A stretch of 64,000 bases of DNA from Candidatus Kaiserbacteria bacterium. Lineage in GTDB: Bacteria > Patescibacteriota > Minisyncoccia > Phycocordibacterales > Phycocordibacteraceae. The DNA lies in the NCBI GenBank assembly GCA_026396675.1, contig JAPLWI010000014.1, forward strand, positions 376 through 64,375, in the 5' to 3' direction. Shown one piece after another: positions 17,374 through 35,877 of this stretch. Under the pieces are notes generated by a model. That model was not told the origin of the DNA. It saw only the letters and a list, made by a program, of their open reading frames with translations, and did no database searches. The position numbers and the translations under genes were made by a program. Each line of letters begins with the position of its first letter. The first letter of the stretch is position 1.

Positions 17374-18542
17374 GGGTGTATACTAAAGCCATTACTCACC
17401 AATTTAGCGTTGATATGAAAAAAGTATTAGGGTGCGCGTTTCTGGTGTCCGTTCTTGCAATACCGTTGGTTTCGTCTGCAGCAGATTTTCGTTTTGGAAA
17501 ACAGACCTCAATTGAAGCGAATGAGACGGTAGCCACAAACGCCTACCTCGGGGGAGGTAGTGTGGTAAGTGCCGGACCGGTCTCTGGCGATGTACTCGCC
17601 GGTGGCGGCAACGTGTTCGTAAATGGCGCCGTCGGAGGAGATGTTTTCGCCGGTGGCGGTAATGTTATCGTGCTTTCAAATGTCGTTGGTGATGTGCGCG
17701 TCGGCGGAGGCACTGTCATCACGCAAGGCAAAATCGGCGGAGATCTTATTGCTGGCGGCGGGCAGGTAACCGTCGGCGGTCCTGGTATTGGAGGCGATGC
17801 GGCAATCGGAGGAGGATCGGTTCGTATTGACGCCCCAATCGCAGGGAACGCTCGGATTGCCGGCAACGATGTGTACCTAAATGCGCCAATTAAAGGCGAT
17901 ATTTTTGTTCAAGCGAATACATTAACGCTTGGGAAGTCGGCAGTTATTTCTGGCAATTTAAGCTACAAGGCATCTAAGGAACTGGTGAAAGAAGATGGGG
18001 CGATTGTAAATGGACACATAAGTTTTGAACCGCGCGTAGAGCAGAAAGCCACCGCCGTTGGCATCGCCGCAATAATTTCTATTTGGGTTCTCATGAAATT
18101 CTTAGCGCTCTTTGTATGTGCGTTGATTGTTGGGCTCACATTCAAGCGCTACAGCAAGGCGGTCATCAAAAAAGCAGCTGAGCGTCCGTGGTTTGAGATT
18201 GGGAAAGGTCTCGTAGCGTTTATCGTGTTCCCAGTAGCCTCGATACTTTGCCTCGTAACGCTCGTGGGTATTCCGTTCGGTATTCTTGGGCTGTTCGGTT
18301 TTGCGGTCACGCTCATCTTCATGTGGATTATGATGCCAATTGTTGTAGGAAGCGTGATCTATCGTTACTTCACAAAAAGAGAATTGGAAGTATCTTGGAA
18401 AACGGTGCTTCTGGGTGCGTTCGTGTGCATCGTTCTTGGAATTATTCCATTCATCGGATGGTTTATGTTGTTGCTAATCTCTTTGCTTTCTCTTGGTGCC
18501 ATTGTCACGGTTGAGTGGGAGATATGGAAGGAGTGGAGATAG
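17370..18542 (+). CDS. Bactofilin-like repeat (polymer-forming cytoskeletal DUF583-type) protein with signal peptide and C-terminal multi-TM anchor
   Basis: At least 8 tandem units of the GG-x-V-x-V-x-G-x-VGGDV pattern (GGNVFVNGAVGGDVFAGGGNVIV...). N-terminal signal peptide (probable start MKKVLG at 17415). Four C-terminal TM helices. Confidence 0.6.
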   Translation: MRVYTKAITHQFSVDMKKVLGCAFLVSVLAIPLVSSAADFRFGKQTSIEANETVATNAYLGGGSVVSAGPVSGDVLAGGGNVFVNGAVGGDVFAGGGNVIVLSNVVGDVRVGGGTVITQGKIGGDLIAGGGQVTVGGPGIGGDAAIGGGSVRIDAPIAGNARIAGNDVYLNAPIKGDIFVQANTLTLGKSAVISGNLSYKASKELVKEDGAIVNGHISFEPRVEQKATAVGIAAIISIWVLMKFLALFVCALIVGLTFKRYSKAVIKKAAERPWFEIGKGLVAFIVFPVASILCLVTLVGIPFGILGLFGFAVTLIFMWIMMPIVVGSVIYRYFTKRELEVSWKTVLLGAFVCIVLGIIPFIGWFMLLLISLLSLGAIVTVEWEIWKEWR

Positions 18543-18630
18543 AAATACTCACCGCAAAAGCGAGCGAAAGAAATTTTTAGCGCGGTAGTGCGTATTGTAT
18601 AGTGAGAGCCATTATTGCTTAATAATCATT

Positions 18631-18933
18631 ATGGAAAACAATAAAGATTCGGATTGCAAGTGTTCGTTCCACGGAATATGCCACGGGATTCACAGTCATC
18701 ACTGGATGCATCTCGTTATCAAGATTTTCATCGCACTCTTCATCTTCTGGTGCGGTGTTCAGTTCGGAGAATTGCGGACGACTATACACGGCGGCTACGG
18801 TAATCATCGAATGATGGGTTCGTACGAGCAGTCCAGAAATATGATGTATTATGGCGGCGGTCCTGTGATGATGACTGGTCAGTCCACCGTTCCTCAAAAG
18901 TCAGCATCAACAGCGACCACAACGAAAAAATAA
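18631..18933 (+). CDS. Small His/Cys/Met-rich membrane protein (possible metal-binding)
   Basis: CKCSFHGICHGIHSHHWMH cluster, one TM helix, then a Met-rich tail (HRMMGSY, NMMYYGGGPVMM). Confidence 0.35.
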   Translation: MENNKDSDCKCSFHGICHGIHSHHWMHLVIKIFIALFIFWCGVQFGELRTTIHGGYGNHRMMGSYEQSRNMMYYGGGPVMMTGQSTVPQKSASTATTTKK

Positions 18934-18934
18934 T

Positions 18935-19951
18935 TTATTTCCCCCGCCCGAAATATTTCTTTAGAAGCACGACATGTTCGGCGTATGTGTTGGAGCAGTG
19001 AAATTGTCCGGCATTGTCATGAAAATAGAAGAGACATGTAGTGCTCTTCGGATTTAGTGCAGCCAACACTGCGGCGACAGACGGATTCGCAATCGGTGTA
19101 GGCGGCAGTCCGGAGTGAATATATGTATTATATGGCGACTTGCGTGAAATATCGGCTGGGGTCGCCTTTGGCCACCAACTGCCGGTCGTTCGACCGTTTG
19201 CTTTTGCATATTGGACGGTGGCATCTATCTGAAGATTCATGTTAGCGAATAGACGGTTCCAGATAATACCAGATATAAGACGCATATCATCAGGTCCGCT
19301 GGCCTCGCGTTCGAGAAGCGAGGCAATAGTAAGAGCATCATTGAGCGGCACTATTTGAGCGGTTGTCGTTCCATAACGCGAAAGAATATCTTCAGCAAAA
19401 CGTTGGTTTACCATGTCTTGTGCAACAGCTGGCGTTGTTCCTTTTTCAACAACATACACGCCCGGCGAGAACGAACCCTCGGGCAATGGTAGCACCGCAT
19501 ATTTATCAGCGACCATGAACTGTTTTTTTTGCGTGCTGTTCCATGCGAGCGCGTTTCCGAACGCACTCGCCGCTTGCTCCTTCCGCATCCCCGGCGTGAT
19601 GGTTATGATGCGATTACTTGCTCCTGCAACTCCGGCAATGCTCTGATACCATGACGCTTCGCTGACGGTTGTTGCAATCCATTCAAATACGCTTCGTAAT
19701 GCACCCCCTGTATTTTCTACAGCCGCTTGTAGCGGAGGACGAGCGGTTTCAAAAATAGCATTCACCTGGGCATTTTCAACTATGATTTTATTCTTCGGAT
19801 CAACGGTAACTGGGAACTGGCCCAGTGTCATCGTGGCGGCCTGTTCATGTTGGATAGTGAGAACAAGAATTGTGGGAAGCGAAAGCACCGCCACTCCAAA
19901 TAAAACAATAAACACCAACACGACGACAAGTCGTTTGCCTTTCCAACGCAT
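18935..19951 (-). CDS. mltG: Endolytic murein transglycosylase MltG (YceG family)
   Basis: N-terminal TM helix. YceG signature region GLPPTPIANPSVAAVLAALNP. Confidence 0.85.
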   Translation of the reverse strand: MRWKGKRLVVVLVFIVLFGVAVLSLPTILVLTIQHEQAATMTLGQFPVTVDPKNKIIVENAQVNAIFETARPPLQAAVENTGGALRSVFEWIATTVSEASWYQSIAGVAGASNRIITITPGMRKEQAASAFGNALAWNSTQKKQFMVADKYAVLPLPEGSFSPGVYVVEKGTTPAVAQDMVNQRFAEDILSRYGTTTAQIVPLNDALTIASLLEREASGPDDMRLISGIIWNRLFANMNLQIDATVQYAKANGRTTGSWWPKATPADISRKSPYNTYIHSGLPPTPIANPSVAAVLAALNPKSTTCLFYFHDNAGQFHCSNTYAEHVVLLKKYFGRGK

Positions 19952-20039
19952 AATTATAGTATAACAAAAATATCGCCGGCTGTCTTATGGTATCGTTACA
20001 GAGGATTTGTTCTTAAATAAAAGAAAAAAGGAGGGCAAT

Positions 20040-21110
20040 ATGAAATTGCCAGGATTGAAGTTTAAAAATGTCAACTTGGGCAATTGTATTGTCCAAGGCG
20101 GAATGGGCGTCGGTGTTTCTCTTGCTACGCTCGCAGGAGCGGTTGCGGGAGAGGGAGGCCTTGGAATCATTTCAAGTGCAGGCCTCGACGAGATCGTATC
20201 GAAGAGAGATGGGAAGAACGTTGGTACTTACGAAGCGGTTAGAATTGAAATCGAGAAGGCAAAAAGTTTGAGCGGTGGTCGTGGCGCAATCGGCATTAAT
20301 GCGATGGTCGCAATTGTCCGCGACTATGAAGATACTATCCGTGCCGCAATTGACGCCGGAGCTGACGCGATTATTTCTGGCGGGGGTCTTCCACTCGGAC
20401 TCTCTGGTATTAAAAATCCAGGACACACGGCGCTTATTCCTATTGTCTCTAGTGCACGAGCATTGGAACTTATCATTAAGCGCTGGGAACGAGACGGTTA
20501 TCGACCGGACGCAGTTGTGTTAGAGGGACCTCTCGCGGGAGGACACCTCGGATTCAAGTACGAGGAGATAAATAATCCGGCTTCCGAGCTGGAAAATCTT
20601 TTATCAGAGGTTTTAGAAGTCGCTCACAAATACGGTGGCATTCCTGTTGTTGCCGCAGGTGGTGTCTTCACTCACGAAGACATCGAAAAGTTTCTCTCAA
20701 TGGGTGCAAGAGGGGTGCAAATAGGCACCAGATTTCTTGCAACGAAAGAGAGTTCGGCAACGGACGCATACAAACAGGCAGTAATTTCTGCAACAGAGGA
20801 CGACATCTTAGTCGTCTCATTCCCCGACAGAAATCCTGCTTCGCCCTGCGGACTTCCGCTTCGAATTCTCACGAGTTCACCTGCGTGCACTGCGGAGCGC
20901 ATGCCATGTTGTAGCAGAGGATTTTTGCTTCGAAATGGTGTTTGTAAAGCAAAGGACGACAATAGGTATCTCTGTGTTTGTAGTGCGTTAATGAGTTCAG
21001 CAGGATATGCTCCAGAAGAACCACCACTCTACACGGTTGGCCAAAATGCATATCGTGTAGACAAAATTGTTCCAGTAGAGGAGCTTATGAAAGAGCTCCT
21101 CGGCGAATAA
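20040..21110 (+). CDS. NAD(P)H-dependent flavin oxidoreductase, nitronate monooxygenase/FabK-like
   Basis: AGGAGG RBS before the ATG at 20040. NMO motifs (IVQGGMGVGVS, GGHLGF). Cys-rich C-terminus. The 3' end overlaps the convergent NUDIX-REC gene by about 80 nt. Confidence 0.75.
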   Translation: MKLPGLKFKNVNLGNCIVQGGMGVGVSLATLAGAVAGEGGLGIISSAGLDEIVSKRDGKNVGTYEAVRIEIEKAKSLSGGRGAIGINAMVAIVRDYEDTIRAAIDAGADAIISGGGLPLGLSGIKNPGHTALIPIVSSARALELIIKRWERDGYRPDAVVLEGPLAGGHLGFKYEEINNPASELENLLSEVLEVAHKYGGIPVVAAGGVFTHEDIEKFLSMGARGVQIGTRFLATKESSATDAYKQAVISATEDDILVVSFPDRNPASPCGLPLRILTSSPACTAERMPCCSRGFLLRNGVCKAKDDNRYLCVCSALMSSAGYAPEEPPLYTVGQNAYRVDKIVPVEELMKELLGE

Positions 21111-22090
21111 CAAGACCGTTTCTTCTTCATTTCACGATGACGGAGCAACGGTCTTTTACTCCCCTGTATCGCCTGGATAATTTCTACAGCTGAAACAGGT
21201 TTACCAAAAAAGATTACCCCCTCCTTTTCTTCTTCAGGTACATTTTTTCCACTTAGTAATACAATTCGTGTACTCGCATTGAGATGCGGTTTCGCTTTCC
21301 TGATGAATTCGGCGCCATCAATTCCTGGCATTTCATAGTCGGTAACCAGCGCGTTAATTTCCACAACCGAATTCTTTAGCCATTCTAAGGCCTTTTCCGG
21401 ATTAGAAAATGCATATACCAGATACCCGAAAAACTTGAAGTTTTCGCTAAACGTTCCCAATATTTCGCGATGATCCTCAACGAAAAGAATTGTTTTTTGT
21501 TCGTGATCTGTCTTTTTTTTCTTCGGAATTGACTCAGAACTTACCATTTGAAGTATATTTGCGCTCTTTCCAAAACTCCATATCAAAGCGCTCATAACCT
21601 CTCTGCTGATTTGTCGAGATTGAGCCAAATTTACCACCACCTGGAAATGGTGAAGACATTCCGACATGAAAGATCTATCCGTTTTCTTCTCAAGAAAGTC
21701 AATGGCTTTTTGAGCAACCCGAGTCAGTTTCAATTTTTTAGCTTCATCGAAACTGAACCACTTCACTTCCAGAATCCCTTCTTTCAATAGCGGGGCAGGG
21801 GGGTTTTCTCCGTAGTGATATCCGACGAAGATATCAAAAAGATAGAGCTGACCACTCCTTTGCTCATCGCAACTGAAAATCAATTGTTGCTCGAAAACTC
21901 CTTCGAGCTTTGATTCCTCTCGTATTTCTCTGGCAATAGTTTTTTCTCTCCCTTTGTCAGATGATTCAATATGGCCGCCAAGTAATCCCCAGAATAGGCC
22001 CTTTTTGCCTAAGAGTATTTGCCCATAGACATTTAACAGAGCTGCCAACGCCACATGGTGCGTTTTCCCTTTACTCATTTTCCTCACCAC
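21029..22090 (-). CDS. NUDIX hydrolase domain fused to a response-regulator receiver (REC) domain
   Basis: Nudix box GGHIESSDKGREKTIAREIREESKLEG at the N-terminus. A REC domain in the C-terminal third (ILFVEDH, LVTDYEMPGIDG, VLLSGK). Confidence 0.7.
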   Translation of the reverse strand: MVRKMSKGKTHHVALAALLNVYGQILLGKKGLFWGLLGGHIESSDKGREKTIAREIREESKLEGVFEQQLIFSCDEQRSGQLYLFDIFVGYHYGENPPAPLLKEGILEVKWFSFDEAKKLKLTRVAQKAIDFLEKKTDRSFMSECLHHFQVVVNLAQSRQISREVMSALIWSFGKSANILQMVSSESIPKKKKTDHEQKTILFVEDHREILGTFSENFKFFGYLVYAFSNPEKALEWLKNSVVEINALVTDYEMPGIDGAEFIRKAKPHLNASTRIVLLSGKNVPEEEKEGVIFFGKPVSAVEIIQAIQGSKRPLLRHREMKKKRSCYSPRSSFISSSTGTILSTRYAFWPTV

Positions 22091-22182
22091 CTTTCTTTAT
22101 TTTTTGATGTCAAAAATCTACTAACTGACCACCACTATACACTATTGCGGATTAAAGTAAATGTATGGTATAATTTCCAGCA

Positions 22183-22392
22183 ATGCAGAAGAAAGAGACA
22201 ATCTATGGCGCAGAGAAACTTGCTAAATTTTTCGGAGTTACGAAGCAGACAGTGAGAGGATGGTGCAAGAAAGGCAAGTTGCCTGCGTTTAAAATAGGGA
22301 AGGAATGGAAAATCAGAGTAATGGATCTTCAAAAAATGATTGACCAGGAAGTCCGCATCAACAAAGACGAAAAATCCTCACGATTGTTTTAA
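22183..22392 (+). CDS. Excisionase/MerR-like HTH DNA-binding protein (Xis family)
   Basis: 69 aa. LAKFFGVTKQTVRGWCKKGKLPAFKIGKEWKI is typical of the excisionase-family HTH. Promoter TTGCGG-17 nt-TATAAT just upstream. Confidence 0.6.
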   Translation: MQKKETIYGAEKLAKFFGVTKQTVRGWCKKGKLPAFKIGKEWKIRVMDLQKMIDQEVRINKDEKSSRLF

Positions 22393-22399
22393 TCACTTG

Positions 22400-22813
22400 C
22401 TACACCGCACTACATTTCTGGCAGAGGCATCCATTCGGCCTGATGTGCATATCAAAATATTCAGTGTCGTAATCGTATGTTAATTCTTCTCCAACTTTGA
22501 TATTTCTTTTCGCAAAAACATAAATCCTTCGGTTACGTATGTCTATTTCGCAATTCGGCGCACAAGAATGGTTTATGTACCGCGCTTTATTTTCTTTAAT
22601 ATTTCCATCTATCATCGTGTTTTTACCTGTCCAAAAGAGATATTTTCCTTTATTTGCTTTTTGCTCTGATTCTGAGACCGGCCGTCCTGTGTATTCAATA
22701 ATGCATACGCCTCTCGGTATAGTTTCTTCAGAAAACATACCAAGTCCGGTACTCGAACGCCCGATGCGCAAAGCATATTTTTTTGGCTTAAAAACCTTTC
22801 GGATCTTTTCCAT
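22400..22813 (-). CDS. SET-domain protein (putative protein-lysine N-methyltransferase)
   Basis: Canonical SET motifs NHSCAPNC and ELTYDY, plus a Cys-rich post-SET region (CLCQKC). Confidence 0.8.
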   Translation of the reverse strand: MEKIRKVFKPKKYALRIGRSSTGLGMFSEETIPRGVCIIEYTGRPVSESEQKANKGKYLFWTGKNTMIDGNIKENKARYINHSCAPNCEIDIRNRRIYVFAKRNIKVGEELTYDYDTEYFDMHIRPNGCLCQKCSAV

Positions 22814-22829
22814 TTCGTTTCGCCGTGAT

Positions 22830-23081
22830 TTATGAAACCTTGCAACGAGAGGGAAGCCAATTCATCACCACTTTCCGATGCTGGTCAAGCGACCACGAAT
22901 CGTTGTGTTTAAAAAGTGTTACATGCGCTACTTTGAACTCTCGCAAGAGCGCTAAAGAGGCGCGCGGAAACTCCGAAGGGAGGCCTTCGTTATAGGACTT
23001 CAAGAATTCCGAAAGAGATAGCGATTTCTCGCTTCGTATTCGGTCAACATCAGGGAATCTCATTGCTTTCAATAATACCAC
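22830..23081 (-). CDS. Hypothetical protein
   Basis: 83-aa ORF immediately upstream of the SET gene on the same strand. Confidence 0.3.
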   Translation of the reverse strand: MVLLKAMRFPDVDRIRSEKSLSLSEFLKSYNEGLPSEFPRASLALLREFKVAHVTLFKHNDSWSLDQHRKVVMNWLPSRCKVS

Positions 23082-23169
23082 GAACTACTCATTAAATCAA
23101 TTTTACCTTTCTGCTGGATAGAAGATGCCTGCCCGTCCGCAGCTTCTGAGCGAAGGAGGGTTCGAACTG

Positions 23170-23224
23170 CTGTATAAAAACAGAAACCGCCCAATCAAAG
23201 CCAGACGGCTCCGATTAGGCGGCT
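23170..23224 (-). terminator. Rho-independent terminator for the gene at 23223..23564
   Basis: Minus-strand hairpin GCCGCCTAATC...GATTGGGCGG followed by TTTCTGTTTTTATACAG. Its 3' half is identical over 22 nt to the serS-upstream terminator. Confidence 0.5.
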
Positions 23225-23564
23225 AACTCTTTGTTCGTCGGGTGACTTCATATCCAAGTCGGCGGACGAGTTTGACTAAATGCTCTTCTGCTTTGGACCA
23301 AATTGGAAGCGAGAATTTTTTCTGTGGATTTCTCTCAACACGATACGCAGTGTTTCCTTCAACGATAACTATTCCGATGTCATTTTCGTGAATACCGCTA
23401 AGAACCACCTCAATTGCGTTTGTAAAATGTCCACTCGCAATGATATGGTCATCAGTGTGTGGGTACATTCTTATCGCATCGCCAATTTTCGCCCCAAGTT
23501 CTGCATCCTTTTCTATATCAGACAAACCATCGTGCCGCACCAACAAAACGCTTAAATGTCCCAT
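23223..23564 (-). CDS. Hypothetical protein
   Basis: 113 aa. No confident family assignment (weak resemblance to histidine-phosphatase/SixA-like N-terminus LLVRHDG). Confidence 0.35.
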   Translation of the reverse strand: MGHLSVLLVRHDGLSDIEKDAELGAKIGDAIRMYPHTDDHIIASGHFTNAIEVVLSGIHENDIGIVIVEGNTAYRVERNPQKKFSLPIWSKAEEHLVKLVRRLGYEVTRRTKS

Positions 23565-23652
23565 TGCTTACCTCCTCAGAGTAAATGAAATGATCTCCAA
23601 AAGATCAATCTGCTTCTTATATATTACAAAGTATAAATACTGTCAAGCTCGG

Positions 23653-23724
23653 CTCCGGAGACAGGATTCGAACCTGTGACCTTACGATTAACAGTCGTTT
23701 GCTCTACCGCTGAGCTACTCCGGA
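23653..23724 (-). tRNA. trnN: tRNA-Asn (anticodon GTT)
   Basis: Acceptor TCCGGAG/CTCCGGA, D-loop AGCGGTA, anticodon loop CTGTTAA, T-arm ACAGG-TTCGAAT-CCTGT. Confidence 0.8.
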
Positions 23725-23775
23725 ATATACGCATTCTAACTGAAAAATGATTTGCCGCAATGGTACAGTACAACG

Positions 23776-23994
23776 ATGTATCTGAAAGTATTCGTCACGC
23801 CGAGCGCCAAGCACGAAAAGATAGGGGAGAAAGACGAGGCCCTTACAATTTCAGTGAGAGAGCCGGCGACAGGGAATCGTGCAAATCTGCGTGTGCGCGA
23901 GATTATTGCAAAACGACTCGGGAAACGACTTGGAGAAGTGCGCATTCTGACAGGGCACCACTCGCGCTCTAAAATGATAAGTATTACTGACTGA
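23776..23994 (+). CDS. DUF167/YggU family protein
   Basis: MYLKVFVTPSAKHEKI...EPATGNRANLRVREIIAKRLG matches the conserved YggU pattern. Confidence 0.55.
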   Translation: MYLKVFVTPSAKHEKIGEKDEALTISVREPATGNRANLRVREIIAKRLGKRLGEVRILTGHHSRSKMISITD

Positions 23995-24814
23995 CTTTGT
24001 AATCCATCTCGTGTTTGCCTTCAGGGATTACGCGCTCAATAACAAACTCCCCATTCTTTAGTGATGCTTTTGTTATCTTGATTCGTTTATTATTCTCGAA
24101 GAAATAAGTACCGATGCCGTCAGCATACGCGCGATATTTCCTCCAGTTCTCTTCATCTGAGGCATCGAGCGACAATAGTCCGTCTTCTTTTTTAATTTTC
24201 TTTGTGTGGGAAGCAAGCGAATTATCTTGTGGCACGGGTTCAACGTCACCCGATAAATATTTGTTGAGAGTGTCGACGAGCAGTTGTGCACCCATCTCGA
24301 TAAGTCGCGGGCGCAGTTCGCGTGCTGTCTCGGCTTGTGCAATTGGTGTTTCTTTTTGTGCGACAATGTCTCCTGCATCAACCTCGCGCGCCATCTTTTG
24401 GACGGTGACACCAGTCGTCAGATCGCCGGCTAAAAGGGCTGATTCAAGTGGCGTTGCGCCGCGGTATTTTGGCAGGAGCGAATAATGAATATTCAATACG
24501 CCCTTCGGAAATAACTCGATAAGTTCTTCAGGAAATATTTTTCCGTAGGCAACGACGACAGCATAATCGCACTTTTTTGCTCGGATTGTTGTAATTATTT
24601 CGGTGTCAAATGTTTCGGGAGTGAAGACCGAAATGCCATGTGCGAGCGCTAGCGTTTTCACTTCGGACGGCATAACGGCGAGACCACGACCCTTTGGAGC
24701 ATCTGGGGAAGTAACAACAATCGCGGGGATGAAATCATGTGCAATGAGAACTGCAAGCGTCTCGCTCGCGACAAATGGAGTACCGAAAAAGGCGAATGAA
24801 GAAGAGCTATTCAT
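23984..24814 (-). CDS. fmt: Methionyl-tRNA formyltransferase
   Basis: NIHYSLLPKYRGATPLESALLAGD formyltransferase motif. N-terminal FFGTP. Confidence 0.9.
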   Translation of the reverse strand: MNSSSSFAFFGTPFVASETLAVLIAHDFIPAIVVTSPDAPKGRGLAVMPSEVKTLALAHGISVFTPETFDTEIITTIRAKKCDYAVVVAYGKIFPEELIELFPKGVLNIHYSLLPKYRGATPLESALLAGDLTTGVTVQKMAREVDAGDIVAQKETPIAQAETARELRPRLIEMGAQLLVDTLNKYLSGDVEPVPQDNSLASHTKKIKKEDGLLSLDASDEENWRKYRAYADGIGTYFFENNKRIKITKASLKNGEFVIERVIPEGKHEMDYKVSQ

Positions 24815-25374
24815 TGTTGTTGATGGAGATATACCGCGTGGTCTGTAAAAAGAATACCGTTCAGATGGTCCATTTCATGTTCAAAAATTTGCGCCATGAG
24901 ACCGCCGGCACCGCGAGTGAATCGTGTTCCATCAAGATGACGCGCGGAAATAGTAACGCGCTCGTGTCGGCTTGTCGTGCCATAAACGCCGTGAATCGAG
25001 AGACATCCCTCATCTTCTTCTGCGCGTTTACGAGATGTCTTTATAATTTCTGGATTGATATACAACTCGACTTTCGGTACCGGTGCTGGAAGTGCTTCAT
25101 CCTCCGCAACTTCAGGCAGCGGGACGGTTCGATCTTTTCTCACGATAAAAAGACGATACGAAACACCAACTTGCGGCGCGGCTAGTGCAACACCTTCGGG
25201 GTGTTTATCCAGTTCTTCGGCCATATCATCAATGAGGCGCGCGAGTTCATCCGAGCCGAAAAGTTCCTCTGGTACGGGCTTTGCCACCTCACGCAGCACC
25301 TTTGCGCCTGCCCGGCCAGGGCCATCTTGCACGATTTCTTTCATATTGCCTAGTATAGCTCGTCGGCAAAACAA
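24811..25374 (-). CDS. def: Peptide deformylase
   Basis: EGCLSI and FEHEMDHLNG metal-binding motifs. In the conserved fmt-def arrangement. Confidence 0.9.
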   Translation of the reverse strand: MFCRRAILGNMKEIVQDGPGRAGAKVLREVAKPVPEELFGSDELARLIDDMAEELDKHPEGVALAAPQVGVSYRLFIVRKDRTVPLPEVAEDEALPAPVPKVELYINPEIIKTSRKRAEEDEGCLSIHGVYGTTSRHERVTISARHLDGTRFTRGAGGLMAQIFEHEMDHLNGILFTDHAVYLHQQQ

Positions 25375-25387
25375 AATAAAGATAGTG

Positions 25388-25672
25388 CTAATGTTTCTTT
25401 GGGTCTAGTTCCCACCAGAATTTTTTGCCAAAATTTTGTGCCTGACTGCACACACTTTTTAAATAATATAAATCCTGCGTCGGTATTTTTTCTAGAACCG
25501 TGCCAAGATGCGCCATCGTCATAGGTGCGAGACCATCATTCTTACGAGAATAATTCAGATGCCGAAGAAAGAAACGCATCAACTCACCGCGTTCGGTTTG
25601 ACGTTTCCGTCCCTTCGGCGCTTCTGCCGCCTTTTTTTCGATATCGGGAAGGATTTCACCAATGGATTTCAT
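25388..25672 (-). CDS. Hypothetical protein
   Basis: ORF trimmed to the internal Met (MKSIGEI) to resolve overlap with the GIY-YIG gene. Basic, no recognised domain. Confidence 0.3.
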   Translation of the reverse strand: MKSIGEILPDIEKKAAEAPKGRKRQTERGELMRFFLRHLNYSRKNDGLAPMTMAHLGTVLEKIPTQDLYYLKSVCSQAQNFGKKFWWELDPKKH

Positions 25673-25956
25673 CCCGTTAGAGATAGGAAACGCTTCATTC
25701 TGTTTTTCAAATATCGTTTCCCCATTCCCGTTTTTAGATATTTCTCTCGTGCTGCGGCGTCGTTTATATTGAGGCATGCTTCGTAATATATTAACTCATA
25801 CGGACGATGCTGTTTTGTCCACCCGCTTTGACCTTTCTGATGCTGGCTGAAGCGTTTCCGTAAATCGTTCGTGACTCCCGTGTACCAATAATCGCTTGAA
25901 AGGCTTCTGATGACGTACACATAACACATTTTGGTATCTCTAACGGGATTCATCAA
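25669..25956 (-). CDS. GIY-YIG nuclease domain protein (small, YhbQ-like)
   Basis: YVYVIRS...DYWYTGVTNDLRKRFSQH matches the GIY-YIG catalytic core. Confidence 0.6.
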   Translation of the reverse strand: MMNPVRDTKMCYVYVIRSLSSDYWYTGVTNDLRKRFSQHQKGQSGWTKQHRPYELIYYEACLNINDAAAREKYLKTGMGKRYLKNRMKRFLSLTG

Positions 25957-27299
25957 TTCGTATGGGCCTCAATAGAGGCACCGAGATGTTGGAGACGGAG
26001 CACGATATCTTCATAGCCGCGATTGATACTATATACATTTCGTAAGACCGAACGACCTTTCGCGGCTAGCATCGCGACTAAAATAATAGTCGCTGGCCTG
26101 AGTGCAGGCGGACAAATAACCTCGGCCGCCTTAAGTATTGTAGGACCTTCAATCGAAATGCGGTGCGGGTCATGCAATATCGTTGTCGCACCAAGACGGT
26201 CGAGCTCGGTATAGTAAATAGCGCGCTTTTCATATACCCAGTCGTGAATAAGCGTCATTCCCTTCGCTTGCGTAGCAATAACTGCAAAGAATGGAAGATT
26301 ATCTATATTAAGTCCCGGGTACGGACGTGCATGAATTTTTTCTGGGAAGGCGACGAGTCCGCCAGCCGGCGGATGACTTATTGAAATGTCAACTAATTTT
26401 GTAATGCCGTTCTCCGATGGTCGGGCATTTGAAAGAGTAAATTTCAAACCCATTTTCCCGAGGAGCAACAGTTCAACTTCGAGAAACTCGATCGGCGCGT
26501 CCGCGACCGTGACGGCGGAGCCGGTCACAATCGCGGACGCGATGAAAAACATCGCATCGGTCGGATCTTGGGCTACGCTGTACGAGACATCTTTGTTGAT
26601 ATATTTAACGCCGTGAACAGATAGTGTTGTAGAACCGATGCCTTCAATCGAAACGCCAAGCGCTTGTAAAAATCCGCATACTTCTTGCACCTGATAATTC
26701 GCCGAAGCATATTTAATCACCGAAATACCTGGAATACATGCGGCAGCGAGAAGTGCGTTAATCGTTGCGGTATCGCTTGATTCATAAAGAACAATTTCTG
26801 CCGGATGAAGTGTCGCATGAGTGATACGATAATTTTCAGAATGCGTTTCTATCGCAACGCCGAATTTTTCAAGTGCCATCCCGTGTGGTCGTATACTTCG
26901 AAGACCGAGAGTGCATCCTCCTGACTGCGGAAGATCAAAGGAATTAAAATAATGAATAAGAGGACCGACGAACATAAGAATACTACGCGTCTTCATCGCT
27001 GAAGCGCGATCAATTGTATCGAGAGAAATTTTTTCCGGTGGAATTATAACGACATCGTGATTAACCCACTCAACCTCAACGTCAATTGAACGCAACACCT
27101 CAATCAGGCGATTCACCTCTTCAATTTTTGGAACATTCCGAAGTGTCGTTCGTCCGCGGTTAAGAAGGGAAGCTGCGAGAAGCGCGACAACACCATTCTT
27201 TGACCTACTGGTAACAACGGTCCCTGACAGCTTCTTCCCGCCATCGACGACGAAGTTTAATCCTTCTTGCATAAGAAATAGTGTATCATTACCCTGCAA
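25953..27299 (-). CDS. murA: UDP-N-acetylglucosamine 1-carboxyvinyltransferase
   Basis: EPSP-synthase-fold MurA motifs (KLSGTVVTSRSKNG, LRNVPKIEEV). Confidence 0.9.
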   Translation of the reverse strand: MQGNDTLFLMQEGLNFVVDGGKKLSGTVVTSRSKNGVVALLAASLLNRGRTTLRNVPKIEEVNRLIEVLRSIDVEVEWVNHDVVIIPPEKISLDTIDRASAMKTRSILMFVGPLIHYFNSFDLPQSGGCTLGLRSIRPHGMALEKFGVAIETHSENYRITHATLHPAEIVLYESSDTATINALLAAACIPGISVIKYASANYQVQEVCGFLQALGVSIEGIGSTTLSVHGVKYINKDVSYSVAQDPTDAMFFIASAIVTGSAVTVADAPIEFLEVELLLLGKMGLKFTLSNARPSENGITKLVDISISHPPAGGLVAFPEKIHARPYPGLNIDNLPFFAVIATQAKGMTLIHDWVYEKRAIYYTELDRLGATTILHDPHRISIEGPTILKAAEVICPPALRPATIILVAMLAAKGRSVLRNVYSINRGYEDIVLRLQHLGASIEAHTN

Positions 27300-34213: not shown

Positions 34214-35877
34214 AGTGGCGTAAGAAAAGGAGGCGAGATCCAGAGATAGCTCCAGATGAAATATTTCTTGATGCATCAAATGTTCCTGCATTTGACCGAG
34301 CAAGGTTTGAGGGACGGCTTGAAAAACCACTTTCTCAAAAAACATTTATTTCACTTGCAATTACACTCGGCGCACTTTTCCTCATACTTATCATCCGTAT
34401 CTGGGATCTTCAGGTCATAAACGGCGCTATTTTTGCCGCTGAAAGCGCGCATAATAGTTTAGAAGTTGCAACATTATTCGCCCCACGTGGAATTATTACT
34501 GATTTCCGCGGCATTATGCTCGCCGAAAATATCTCGAAAACGGATGGCAGTGTCGGACGCAAATACTCGCTTCCTTCTTTAGGTCAGATTATCGGTTATG
34601 TTTCATACCCAAAAAAAGATTCAAAAGGAATCTATTATGACACAAGCGAAACTGGTATCGCTGGTCTTGAAGCCGAATACAATTCACTCCTCGCTGGGAA
34701 GAATGGTCAATTGCTTACTGAAAAAGATGTGCTAGGAAATATTCGTTCCGAAGGCATCATCGTTCCCGCAAAAGAAGGAGGAACTCTGCGGCTCTCAATT
34801 GACGCAAATCTCGAACAGCTTTTTGCGCGCGCAATTGCGGATACCGCAAGTAGTAATAATTTCATTGCCGGCGCCGGTGTAATTCTGGATGTGCATACGG
34901 GCGCGGTACGCGCCATCGTTTCTTATCCGTCGTATGACCCGAATGTCATGGCGAACGGCGGCCCGTCGGACCGCATCGCCTCATATAACACGAATGCAGG
35001 GCATCCATTTCTTGATCATGCAGTGCAAGGTGTCTATACTCCTGGTTCCATTGTGAAGCCATTCGTCGCTTCTGGAGCGCTCACCGACGGCCTTATTACT
35101 CCGAACACTACCATTGAAGATCCAGGATTTCTATCATTGCCAGACCCGTATCATCCGGGGAAGAAATTTATTTATAAAGGATGGAAAGCGCTTGGCGCTG
35201 TTGATGTGCGGAAAGCAATCGCATGGTCTTCTGATATTTTCTTCTATACCGTCGGCGGCGGTTTCGGTTCTCAGAAAGGTCTTGGAATCGATCGTCTCGG
35301 TTATTGGTACCAACAATTCGGTCTCGGGAGCCAAACCGGTATCGATTTGCCTGGAGAAGCGAGCGGACTCATCCCGACCCCTGCATGGAAAAAGACGACA
35401 TTCAACGAGCCATGGTATCTTGGCGACACTTATTTTACCGCGATAGGACAGTATTCAGTGCAAGTAACGCCGATACAAATGGCGCGCGCGACTGCTGCCG
35501 TTGCAAACGGCGGCACGCTTCTAGTGCCGACATTGCTTGCTGACGCAACTCCGGTATCTACCATTGTGCCAGTTTCTCCTACAGCACTCGCAGTCGTGCG
35601 CGAAGGCATGCGCAAAGGTGTGACTGAAGCACTCGCCAGTGCGATTAATTTTCCTTATGTGGCGGTAGCGGCGAAAACAGGTACCGCACAAACTGGCGTA
35701 CACAACCAATATGACAATTCGTGGGTTGAAGGATTTTTCCCGTACGATAATCCACAGTATGCGTTCGCCGTCGTTCTTGAACGCGGGCCACAGGGCACGG
35801 GCGAGCAGGCGGTGAATGTGATGCAACAACTTTTTGAATCGTTGCACGCCGAGAATTCTCCGTATGTTGGGCAATGA
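34210..35877 (+). CDS. mrdA: Penicillin-binding protein 2 (elongasome transpeptidase)
   Basis: N-terminal TM helix. SxxK (GSIVKP) and KTGTA motifs. Confidence 0.85.
   Translation: MKWRKKRRRDPEIAPDEIFLDASNVPAFDRARFEGRLEKPLSQKTFISLAITLGALFLILIIRIWDLQVINGAIFAAESAHNSLEVATLFAPRGIITDFRGIMLAENISKTDGSVGRKYSLPSLGQIIGYVSYPKKDSKGIYYDTSETGIAGLEAEYNSLLAGKNGQLLTEKDVLGNIRSEGIIVPAKEGGTLRLSIDANLEQLFARAIADTASSNNFIAGAGVILDVHTGAVRAIVSYPSYDPNVMANGGPSDRIASYNTNAGHPFLDHAVQGVYTPGSIVKPFVASGALTDGLITPNTTIEDPGFLSLPDPYHPGKKFIYKGWKALGAVDVRKAIAWSSDIFFYTVGGGFGSQKGLGIDRLGYWYQQFGLGSQTGIDLPGEASGLIPTPAWKKTTFNEPWYLGDTYFTAIGQYSVQVTPIQMARATAAVANGGTLLVPTLLADATPVSTIVPVSPTALAVVREGMRKGVTEALASAINFPYVAVAAKTGTAQTGVHNQYDNSWVEGFFPYDNPQYAFAVVLERGPQGTGEQAVNVMQQLFESLHAENSPYVGQ

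Follow-up and report, generated by a model that had tools for sequence, protein, structure and literature searches.

Whether a small group of genes sitting directly 3' of a tRNA gene is the residue of an integrated island, or simply a variable part of an ordinary chromosome, is the question raised by a locus of a Candidatus Kaiserbacteria bacterium, a member of the Candidate Phyla Radiation (CPR). The locus lies at positions 22183-23724 of a 64,000-nucleotide (nt) stretch of contig JAPLWI010000014.1 (assembly GCA_026396675.1), which was analysed at full length and is called the window here. It consists of a tRNA-Asn(GTT) gene (23651-23724, minus strand) and four short genes: HTH69, which encodes a helix-turn-helix (HTH) protein; a gene for a SET-domain protein, referred to as SET; and two open reading frames (ORFs), ORF77 and ORF113. 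An earlier reading made from the sequence alone, hereafter the original prediction, had proposed that an excisionase-like HTH, a SET-domain methyltransferase and two ORFs that could not be annotated, found together beside a classic integration site, might be an island remnant. All of the features that it listed were found where it had placed them. The 3' end of the tRNA-Asn does point toward the HTH-SET-ORF77-ORF113 block (ARAGORN; Rfam, 71.9 bits), and neither of the two ORFs has a significant match in Pfam or NCBIfam, although the first is better read as 77 amino acids. We nevertheless conclude that the locus is probably ordinary Kaiserbacteria chromosome and not an integrated element: a conserved backbone brackets a variable zone in which SET, ORF77 and HTH69 reside, together with ORF113 as a cassette from a phage-related family.

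Gene order between tRNA-Asn and YceG

Read with the SET gene on the forward strand, the window runs MurA, GIY-YIG, ORF129, def, fmt, DUF167 (opposite strand), tRNA-Asn, ORF113, ORF77, SET, HTH69 (opposite strand), a NUDIX-receiver gene, an oxidoreductase gene (opposite strand) and YceG. On the tRNA side the backbone includes DUF167/YggU (23752-23994, plus strand) and the methionyl-tRNA formyltransferase gene fmt (23984-24814, minus strand). The far side of the variable zone is formed by genes for a NUDIX and receiver-domain protein (21029-22078, minus strand), an NMO-family oxidoreductase (20007-21110, plus strand) and YceG/MltG (18935-19951, minus strand). The same locus is present in ten Logan contigs from ten sequencing runs with 99.2-100% identity, and a search of Rfam over 20000-26000 (E ≤ 1) returned nothing beyond the tRNA-Asn.

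Five relatives keep SET in a shared backbone of the form MurA-def-fmt-DUF167-tRNA-Asn ... ORF77-YceG. In L105, a 693-kb contig with a SET protein of 70% identity, the order is MurA, ORF129, def, fmt, DUF167 (opposite strand), tRNA-Asn, SET, a 77-amino-acid ORF, ORF77 and YceG; SET follows the tRNA after a gap of 435 nt, and DUF167, tRNA-Asn, SET, ORF77 and YceG together span 3.7 kb. In L011 (SET identity 79%) the order is def, fmt, a gene of 120 codons and DUF167 (both on the opposite strand), tRNA-Asn, 3 kb of other genes, SET, a lactate permease, a histidine kinase, a NUDIX protein, SdpI and ORF77. In L095 (81%), the nearest of the relatives that carry SET, it is def, fmt, a gene of 121 codons and DUF167 (both on the opposite strand), an HNH endonuclease gene, a weakly DUF218-like ORF, SET, ORF77 and PAP2. 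On the P0022 contig (71%) def and fmt are followed at a distance by SET, then DUF167, then YceG, and in the Adlerbacteria locus L014 (68%) the order is SET, a response regulator, a 127-amino-acid ORF and YceG, SET lying about 1.3 kb from YceG.

The DUF167 and fmt part of the backbone is kept in L011, L095, L105 and many of the loci centred on ORF77, and a tRNA-Asn gene stands at the matching position in L011, L105, L102, L107, L115, L122, L125 and L145. What follows the tRNA is unrelated in each relative (a 625-amino-acid secreted-type protein, permeases, a NUDIX protein, membrane proteins), and none of these cargo genes encodes an integrase. ARAGORN found no tRNA-Asn after DUF167 in L095; an HNH-endonuclease-like ORF of 107 amino acids, which scores weakly with PF01844 (20.1 bits, cutoff 21.4), occupies the slot instead (L095:1560-2200), so the backbone has been rearranged there. 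The order of genes from tRNA-Asn to YceG is different in every relative examined, and the interval is therefore a plasticity zone and not an island. The locus is thus correctly described as a conserved backbone interrupted, from tRNA-Asn to YceG, by a plasticity zone of which SET, ORF77 and HTH69 are recurrent residents. The block does not come and go as a unit among relatives: these three genes recur individually and shuffled, and only the ORF113 segment (23104-23650) has no counterpart. Synteny, which the original prediction had suggested as a check, hence gave a divided result, in that the backbone and the three resident genes are conserved in relatives whereas their order is not, and many relatives lack SET in this interval, where it accompanies ORF77 in a minority of loci. 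As a reproducible plasticity zone in Kaiserbacteria, the interval is a possible marker region for strain-level variation.

Conservation of the proteins agrees with this description. Identity to L011 is 79% for SET, 66% for fmt, 62% for def and 66% for MurA, and identity to L105 is 70% for SET, 65% for fmt, 64% for YceG and 78% for MurA. SET is conserved about as well as, or better than, most of the housekeeping genes that flank it, MurA being higher in L105. At the DNA level the window is homologous to L095 and L011 over SET, over ORF77 with its promoter (to 23103) and on the DUF167/tRNA side, and shows no homology to them over 23104-23650.

Signatures of integration were sought around the block. 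The absence of an integrase, remarked on in the original prediction, was confirmed by Pfam, which detected no integrase or recombinase among all genes from YceG (18935) to def (25374). The partial tRNA-Asn 3' repeat that was expected to define island boundaries has no second copy in the window: with up to three mismatches allowed, the 24-nt 3' end of the tRNA matches only itself in the 64 kb, and the 15-nt end has one unrelated match, at 35318, which is at chance level. The 11-mers shared with tRNA-Asn contain no plausible attR-like attachment (att) site, and a repeat scan of 18000-26000 yielded noise-level families only. Two candidate sites were rejected. A 19-nt likeness (15/19) of the tRNA anticodon arm to the beginning of YceG, repeat family D16, was taken as noise among 55 similar families. 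A possible tRNA remnant in the intergenic region 23082-23222, where GGGTTCGAAC (about 23160-23169, plus strand) and the 8-mer CGGCTCCG (about 23206-23213) resemble a T-loop and an acceptor end, was discarded as an att site for its wrong order, its lack of a T-arm and its position in or beside the ORF113 terminator.

Of the whole block, ORF113 (23223-23564, minus strand; 113 amino acids; locus tag NTU85_02620) alone looks like a recent acquisition. Among 5.8 billion clustered proteins it retrieved itself only, and its remote relatives amount to 21 weak matches in 1.8 billion representatives. Relatives of ORF113 are likewise encoded singly in CPR-type chromosomes. The phage protein family phrog_7147 is matched by 13 of 19 aligned family members detected with HMMER (best E 6e-22), whereas ORF113 itself matches weakly, if over its full length (E 0.015), so that its membership of PHROG 7147 rests on transitive homology. 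One member of the family, P0255, has 31-35% identity to hypothetical proteins of Mycobacterium and Brucella phages; tblastn of ORF113 against 50,697 phage records gave no match, and in a scan of viral contigs the ORF113 alignment was too divergent for the search patterns. A strong Shine-Dalgarno sequence (GAGGAGG) precedes the gene, and directly after its stop codon stands a strong intrinsic terminator (23185-23224, minus strand) with an 18-bp stem followed by a T-run. Because ORF113 is an orphan, has phage-family relatives and lies in DNA without homology in L095 or L011, we interpret the 0.55-kb segment as a lineage-specific insertion directly 3' of tRNA-Asn. It would be a single-gene cassette of phage-family origin, carrying its own ribosome-binding site and terminator, which landed at this site in this lineage only. 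The part of the island idea that survives is accordingly small: the interval 3' of tRNA-Asn is hypervariable in relatives, and it holds one strain-specific gene.

We also observed that CAGCAGTTCGAACCCTCCTTC follows the ORF113 terminator (23146-23175, minus strand) and that in the closest homolog locus (L096:470-500) the terminator is followed by CAAACAAGTTCGAACATCCTCTACC. A GTTCGAAC-CCTC motif is common to the DNA downstream of both cassettes, which are two cases only.

The SET-domain protein

The SET gene (22400-22813, minus strand) encodes a protein of 137 amino acids that existing annotation already describes as a SET-domain lysine methyltransferase, and small SET proteins are familiar from prokaryotes. 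The profile search that had been proposed as a check placed it well above threshold, with 85.1 bits against PF00856 (gathering cutoff 22.4; E 5.5e-24) over profile positions 1-104 of 105. The NHSCAPNC and ELTYDY motifs and the post-SET cysteines picked out in the original prediction are all present. An alignment of 28 homologs has 42 invariant columns, which include GxG, NHSCxPNCE, ELxYDY and EYF; the residues concerned comprise G23, G25, N81-H82-S83-C84, P86-N87, E110-L111 and Y113-D114-Y115. Also invariant are C129, C131 and C134, the post-SET cysteine cluster, which with C84, the cysteine of NHSC, completes a predicted zinc site. The nearest PDB structures by sequence are MLL3/KMT2C, MLL4 and MLL1 SET domains (E about 4e-17), and the motifs line up with their counterparts in MLL3 and MLL4. 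An AlphaFold2 (AF2) model built from the 28 homologs (mean predicted local distance difference test score, pLDDT, 67; predicted template modelling score, pTM, 0.61) retrieved with Foldseek the SET domains of MLL3, MLL1, EZH2 and G9a (E 1e-9 to 1e-7, probability 1.00, query TM-score 0.55-0.66). As the motifs and cysteines are invariant in the alignment, the residue classes of an active SET domain and the post-SET zinc site are all in place, and by sequence and predicted fold the protein appears to have every feature of an active S-adenosylmethionine-dependent lysine methyltransferase. It is a single domain with no extras and has a basic, non-hydrophobic N-terminus. We would expect it to be a cytoplasmic, S-adenosylmethionine-dependent protein lysine methyltransferase, with a minimal core closest to the MLL/SET1 type and a zinc-binding post-SET cluster.

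A word-indexed protein search returned 829 SET homologs, and a scan restricted to one genome per species found at least 595 loci. The best 120 of the 829 homologs share 60-81% identity with the protein, are 123-226 amino acids long (most of them 134-150) and, where the source is named, come from Kaiserbacteria, Adlerbacteria, Paceibacterota or Minisyncoccia. Outside the CPR, the matches listed include Hyphomonadaceae (45-53% identity), records labelled Bdellovibrionales (about 45%) and Methanosarcinales (42-43%; L068, L070); Woesearchaeota, Verrucomicrobia, Pelagibacteraceae and others are also among the matches listed, besides many CPR groups. SET is under strong purifying selection. The literature searched contained no link between SET domains and Parcubacteria, Patescibacteria or Kaiserbacteria, and in it "SET domain" and "Candidate Phyla Radiation" were co-mentioned only in one paper on bacterial Death-like and TRADD-N domains, whose title and abstract contain neither term. 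A minimal SET methyltransferase that is, in a large CPR group, one of the better-conserved small proteins offers a cheap and tractable target for studying protein methylation in ultra-small bacteria.

The high conservation argues for one fixed endogenous substrate. To judge from sequence, SET most likely methylates an endogenous protein, and it would act within the cell, on a single conserved substrate. Of the two roles that the original prediction had offered, control of a target protein by methylation is the sensible one. A candidate partner is suggested by four related loci, L021 (3241-3909), L059 (8494-9309), L060 (575-2327) and L061 (4226-5056), in each of which the SET homolog is immediately preceded, on its own strand, by a gene with a SWIB/MDM2 domain (PF02201, E 1e-31). 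The gap between the two genes is 36 nt in L021, a Paceibacterota locus, and in three more loci (L016, L033, L057) a SWIB gene is found within 10 kb of SET. Co-occurrence of SWIB and SET in bacteria has been described for Chlamydiae, in which a small SWIB protein binds DNA genome-wide (PMC6426960), and Go1-SET of M. mazei, which belongs to the Methanosarcinales and has a SET protein of the same small prokaryotic family, methylates the chromatin protein MC1-alpha in vitro (PMC3980110). Because SWIB genes stand upstream of SET homologs and the Methanosarcina SET protein targets a chromatin protein, a DNA-associated substrate is favoured, and our best guess, held with modest confidence, is an abundant basic DNA-associated protein. 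The SWIB pairing, which is occasional and operon-like, provides a testable candidate partner or substrate for SET.

ORF77, HTH69 and neighbouring genes

ORF77 (22830-23063, minus strand; locus tag NTU85_02615) was first delimited mechanically as ORF83, which runs to a GTG at 23081, but a start at ATG 23063, giving 77 amino acids, agrees with the NCBI call and with all homologs. The family is restricted to this clade. Its homologs comprise 119 clustered proteins of 58-89% identity, none with a Pfam domain, and those that are named all come from Kaiserbacteria, Paceibacterota, Minisyncoccota or an unclassified "bacterium"; relatives are encoded in 255 metagenome loci. The alignment has 22 invariant columns, and the motif WSLDQHRK is invariant. 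Besides the lack of a family match already mentioned, the AF2 model, which has four helices (pLDDT 70), found no fold match in the PDB. Neighbours were counted in 80 ORF77-centred loci (L101-L180), 62 of which had room for the count. YceG/MltG is the most frequent neighbour: in 16 of the 62 it comes next downstream on the same strand, and in 36 of the 80 it is present anywhere in the locus. This frequent placement of ORF77 directly upstream of YceG/MltG hints at a cell-wall-related role.

A promoter-like site (23072-23100, minus strand; TTGATT and TATTAT separated by 17 nt, with TG) ends 8 nt before the ORF77 start codon, and this DNA is conserved together with the gene, homology to L095 and L011 ending at 23103 and 23102, respectively. 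Because a gap of 16 nt separates ORF77 from SET, which follows it on the same strand, and no terminator was called between them, the two genes are probably co-transcribed in this genome, and the arrangement would have them expressed together from a leaderless-type promoter. A functional SET-ORF77 pair as a general rule was considered, since the genes are adjacent here, in L095 (where the order is reversed) and in L105, and was rejected: YceG is the commoner neighbour of ORF77, and SET occurs in 6 of the 80 ORF77 loci. Four Logan contigs, each from a different run, stop at exactly one base, position 22868 near the 3' end of ORF77, and six others reach the tRNA, which suggests a co-occurring variant that diverges at 22868.

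HTH69 (22183-22392, plus strand; 69 amino acids) is convergent with SET, with a gap of 7 nt. Its description as Xis-like holds, in that it matches both PF12728 (HTH_17; 51.1 bits, cutoff 27, E 1.6e-13) and, just passing, TIGR01764, "excisionase family DNA-binding protein" (30.9 bits, cutoff 28.8). Its PHROG matches are mixed (HTH DNA-binding, excisionase, small terminase), and the scan of viral contigs gave a single weak match of 35% identity. The PADLOC defence-system models produced weak HTH matches to mad1 only and none for SET, ORF77 or ORF113. The near-consensus promoter attributed to HTH69 stands in part: its extended -10 element is perfect (TGGTATAAT, 22166-22174, plus strand), whereas of the -35 only TTG is present (22145-22147, spacer 18 nt), and a consensus scan did not call the promoter, the -35 matching at fewer than 4 of 6 positions. 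Since the extended -10 ends 8 nt before the ATG, the HTH69 mRNA would be leaderless or nearly so. We note the same layout in HTH69 (TGGTATAAT) and ORF77 (TGGTATTAT), each with a TG-extended -10 that ends 8 nt before the ATG and no Shine-Dalgarno sequence, which implies leaderless transcripts.

Homologs of HTH69 with 88% identity adjoin ORF77 on two metagenome contigs, L102 (convergent) and L106 (divergent). No integrase accompanies HTH69 in the neighbourhood here, nor is there one among the ORFs listed around the L102 and L106 homologs, so its excisionase label is a family name only. HTH69 is most likely a stand-alone transcription regulator of the common HTH_17 type and not a working excisionase.

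Two further observations concern genes outside the block. At position 21160 the window lacks 68 nt that six Logan contigs from different runs, all of the same organism, contain. This piece includes the stop codon of the NUDIX-receiver gene and a bidirectional terminator hairpin, AAAACCTCGACATTGTAACCGATGCCGAGGTTTT, and its loss is the reason why the gene is longer by 35 codons and overlaps the NMO-family gene by 82 nt; the gap probably arose in assembly or reflects a population variant at a short ATACAGGGGA repeat. On the other side of the locus (25388-25956), a small stand-alone GIY-YIG nuclease-domain ORF (25669-25956; PF01541, E 3e-16) and the conserved ORF129 (25388-25777) have 109 nt in common. 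Homologs of both are found in L036, beside the SET gene of that locus.

Alternative readings and known systems

Several observations weigh against reading the locus as ordinary chromosome with SET as an old resident. The G+C content of SET is 0.39, compared with a mean of 0.475 for the long ORFs of the window (z = -3.1; z = -1.8 for G+C at third codon positions, GC3), which is weak evidence because the protein is short and rich in lysine, isoleucine and asparagine. For HTH69 and ORF113, also short genes, z is -2.8 and -1.6 for G+C, and +1.4 and -1.5 for GC3. Just 6 of the 80 loci centred on ORF77 carry SET at a distance of 6 kb or less, and the more distant SET loci are without any backbone gene, so that its positional conservation is limited to closer relatives. 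When ORFs within 3 kb of SET were clustered over 80 loci, no neighbour family recurred across taxa except SWIB, in a minority of loci, and the 64-kb window contains no SWIB gene. Confidence in the AF2 model of SET is moderate (pLDDT 67). Finally, several related loci owe their taxon labels (such as "Saccharibacteria" and "Bdellovibrionales") to automated records of metagenome-assembled genomes, and these labels may be wrong.

Were the block a decayed island that had inserted at the 3' end of tRNA-Asn and since lost its integrase, its position directly 3' of the tRNA, the match of HTH69 to an excisionase-family model, the somewhat low G+C over the NUDIX-receiver gene, HTH69 and SET, the changing gene content after tRNA-Asn among relatives and the orphan ORF113 with its phage-family ancestry would all be accounted for. 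Such an origin is very unlikely given that neither an integrase nor a partial tRNA repeat is present, that SET, ORF77 and HTH69 all recur within the same backbone of relatives, that in L105 SET comes right after tRNA-Asn with no cargo between, that SET and ORF77 are as conserved as most of their housekeeping neighbours and that DNA homology with relatives is lost only over the ORF113 cassette. For SET, ORF77 and HTH69 the island remnant of the original prediction is thus largely refuted, and an annotation-level guess is corrected, since a tRNA gene, a Xis-like HTH and a "eukaryote-like" enzyme do not add up to an island at this locus. The block might also be a regulatory module and not a chance neighbourhood, with HTH69 as dedicated regulator of the divergent NUDIX-receiver gene or of the convergent ORF77-SET pair. 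HTH_17 proteins do include MerR-like and BldC-like regulators, and the HTH69 homologs stay beside ORF77 in L102 and L106 despite rearrangement. These are only two contigs, however, and both are close relatives (ORF77 identity 80-84%), so the linkage is explained by shared ancestry; HTH69 is absent beside SET or ORF77 in all other loci, and the repeat scan revealed no operator-like repeat. We consider this arrangement unlikely, if conceivable.

The function of SET admits other proposals. That it might be a secreted effector with which an episymbiotic CPR cell methylates chromatin or nucleoid proteins of its host, in the manner of Chlamydia NUE or Legionella RomA/LegAS4, is suggested by the view, given in PMC12577380, that CPR bacteria are widely regarded as host-dependent, and by the effectors among characterised bacterial SET proteins (PMC3980110, PMC2904774). 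The best and only NCBIfam match of SET is likewise the AnkI/LegAS4 effector model (NF043024), but at 35.8 bits against a cutoff of 550 and over the SET core only. The original prediction had also thought of an effector of a host-associated bacterium, and this finds no support: the protein is a bare domain with no signal peptide, ankyrin repeats or nuclear localisation signal, and Pfam identified no secretion-system genes near SET. The identity of 60-81% among the 120 best homologs is easier to reconcile with a fixed internal substrate than with an arms-race effector. Homologs are also found, among the matches listed, in Pelagibacteraceae and Hyphomonadaceae, which are free-living. We therefore hold a secreted effector to be highly improbable. 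A more speculative and rather doubtful idea is that the small SET conserved in many CPR genomes of Paceibacteria type, often beside a SWIB gene, forms part of a native "chromatin-modification" system, which would methylate an abundant nucleoid-associated protein and so tune genome compaction or transcription; delivery of SET to a host cell, where it would modify host nucleoid or histone proteins, is the less likely alternative. The reading that we prefer remains that of a chromosomal resident with an endogenous substrate, in a plasticity zone.

Set beside known systems, the locus resembles tRNA-associated islands in its position 3' of a tRNA gene, its excisionase-family HTH and the variable gene content at the site. 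Such islands combine an integrase, Xis and att repeats, whereas here integrase and att repeat are lacking, most of the "cargo" consists of conserved lineage residents and only the 0.55-kb ORF113 cassette behaves as an insertion. The ORF113 family itself resembles PHROG 7147, known from Mycobacterium phages Boomer and Seagreen and Brucella phage R/C, in its length of about 105-118 amino acids and its full-length alignment, but ORF113 is a weak match (E 0.015) and stands alone in a chromosome, not in a prophage.

With the secreted SET effectors (Chlamydia NUE/cpnSET, Legionella RomA/LegAS4, Burkholderia BtSET and Bacillus anthracis BaSET) the protein shares the SET catalytic core, and it differs from them in having no secretion signal, nuclear localisation signal or ankyrin repeats and in being conserved like a housekeeping gene. 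SET domains of the MLL/KMT2-SET1 group are its best matches both by sequence (E 4e-17) and by fold (Foldseek E 9e-10, about 33-36% identity); SET-N, SET-C and post-SET are all present, and the tyrosines of YDY are conserved. In MLL1 the canonical post-SET spacing is CxCx4C, with which the HMMER alignment to MLL3 is consistent, whereas the spacing in this SET is CxCx2C, and its SET-I insert is much shorter. A bacterium has neither WRAD partners nor a histone H3 substrate, and membership of KMT2 is not claimed. The minimal prokaryotic SET methyltransferases differ from this SET in that it comes from CPR bacteria and is known from sequence. With them it shares a single domain of similar size without accessory domains, the NHSCxPN and YDY motifs, Methanosarcinales homologs of 42-43% identity and, as with the chromatin protein MC1, an archaeal protein, a likely endogenous non-histone substrate.

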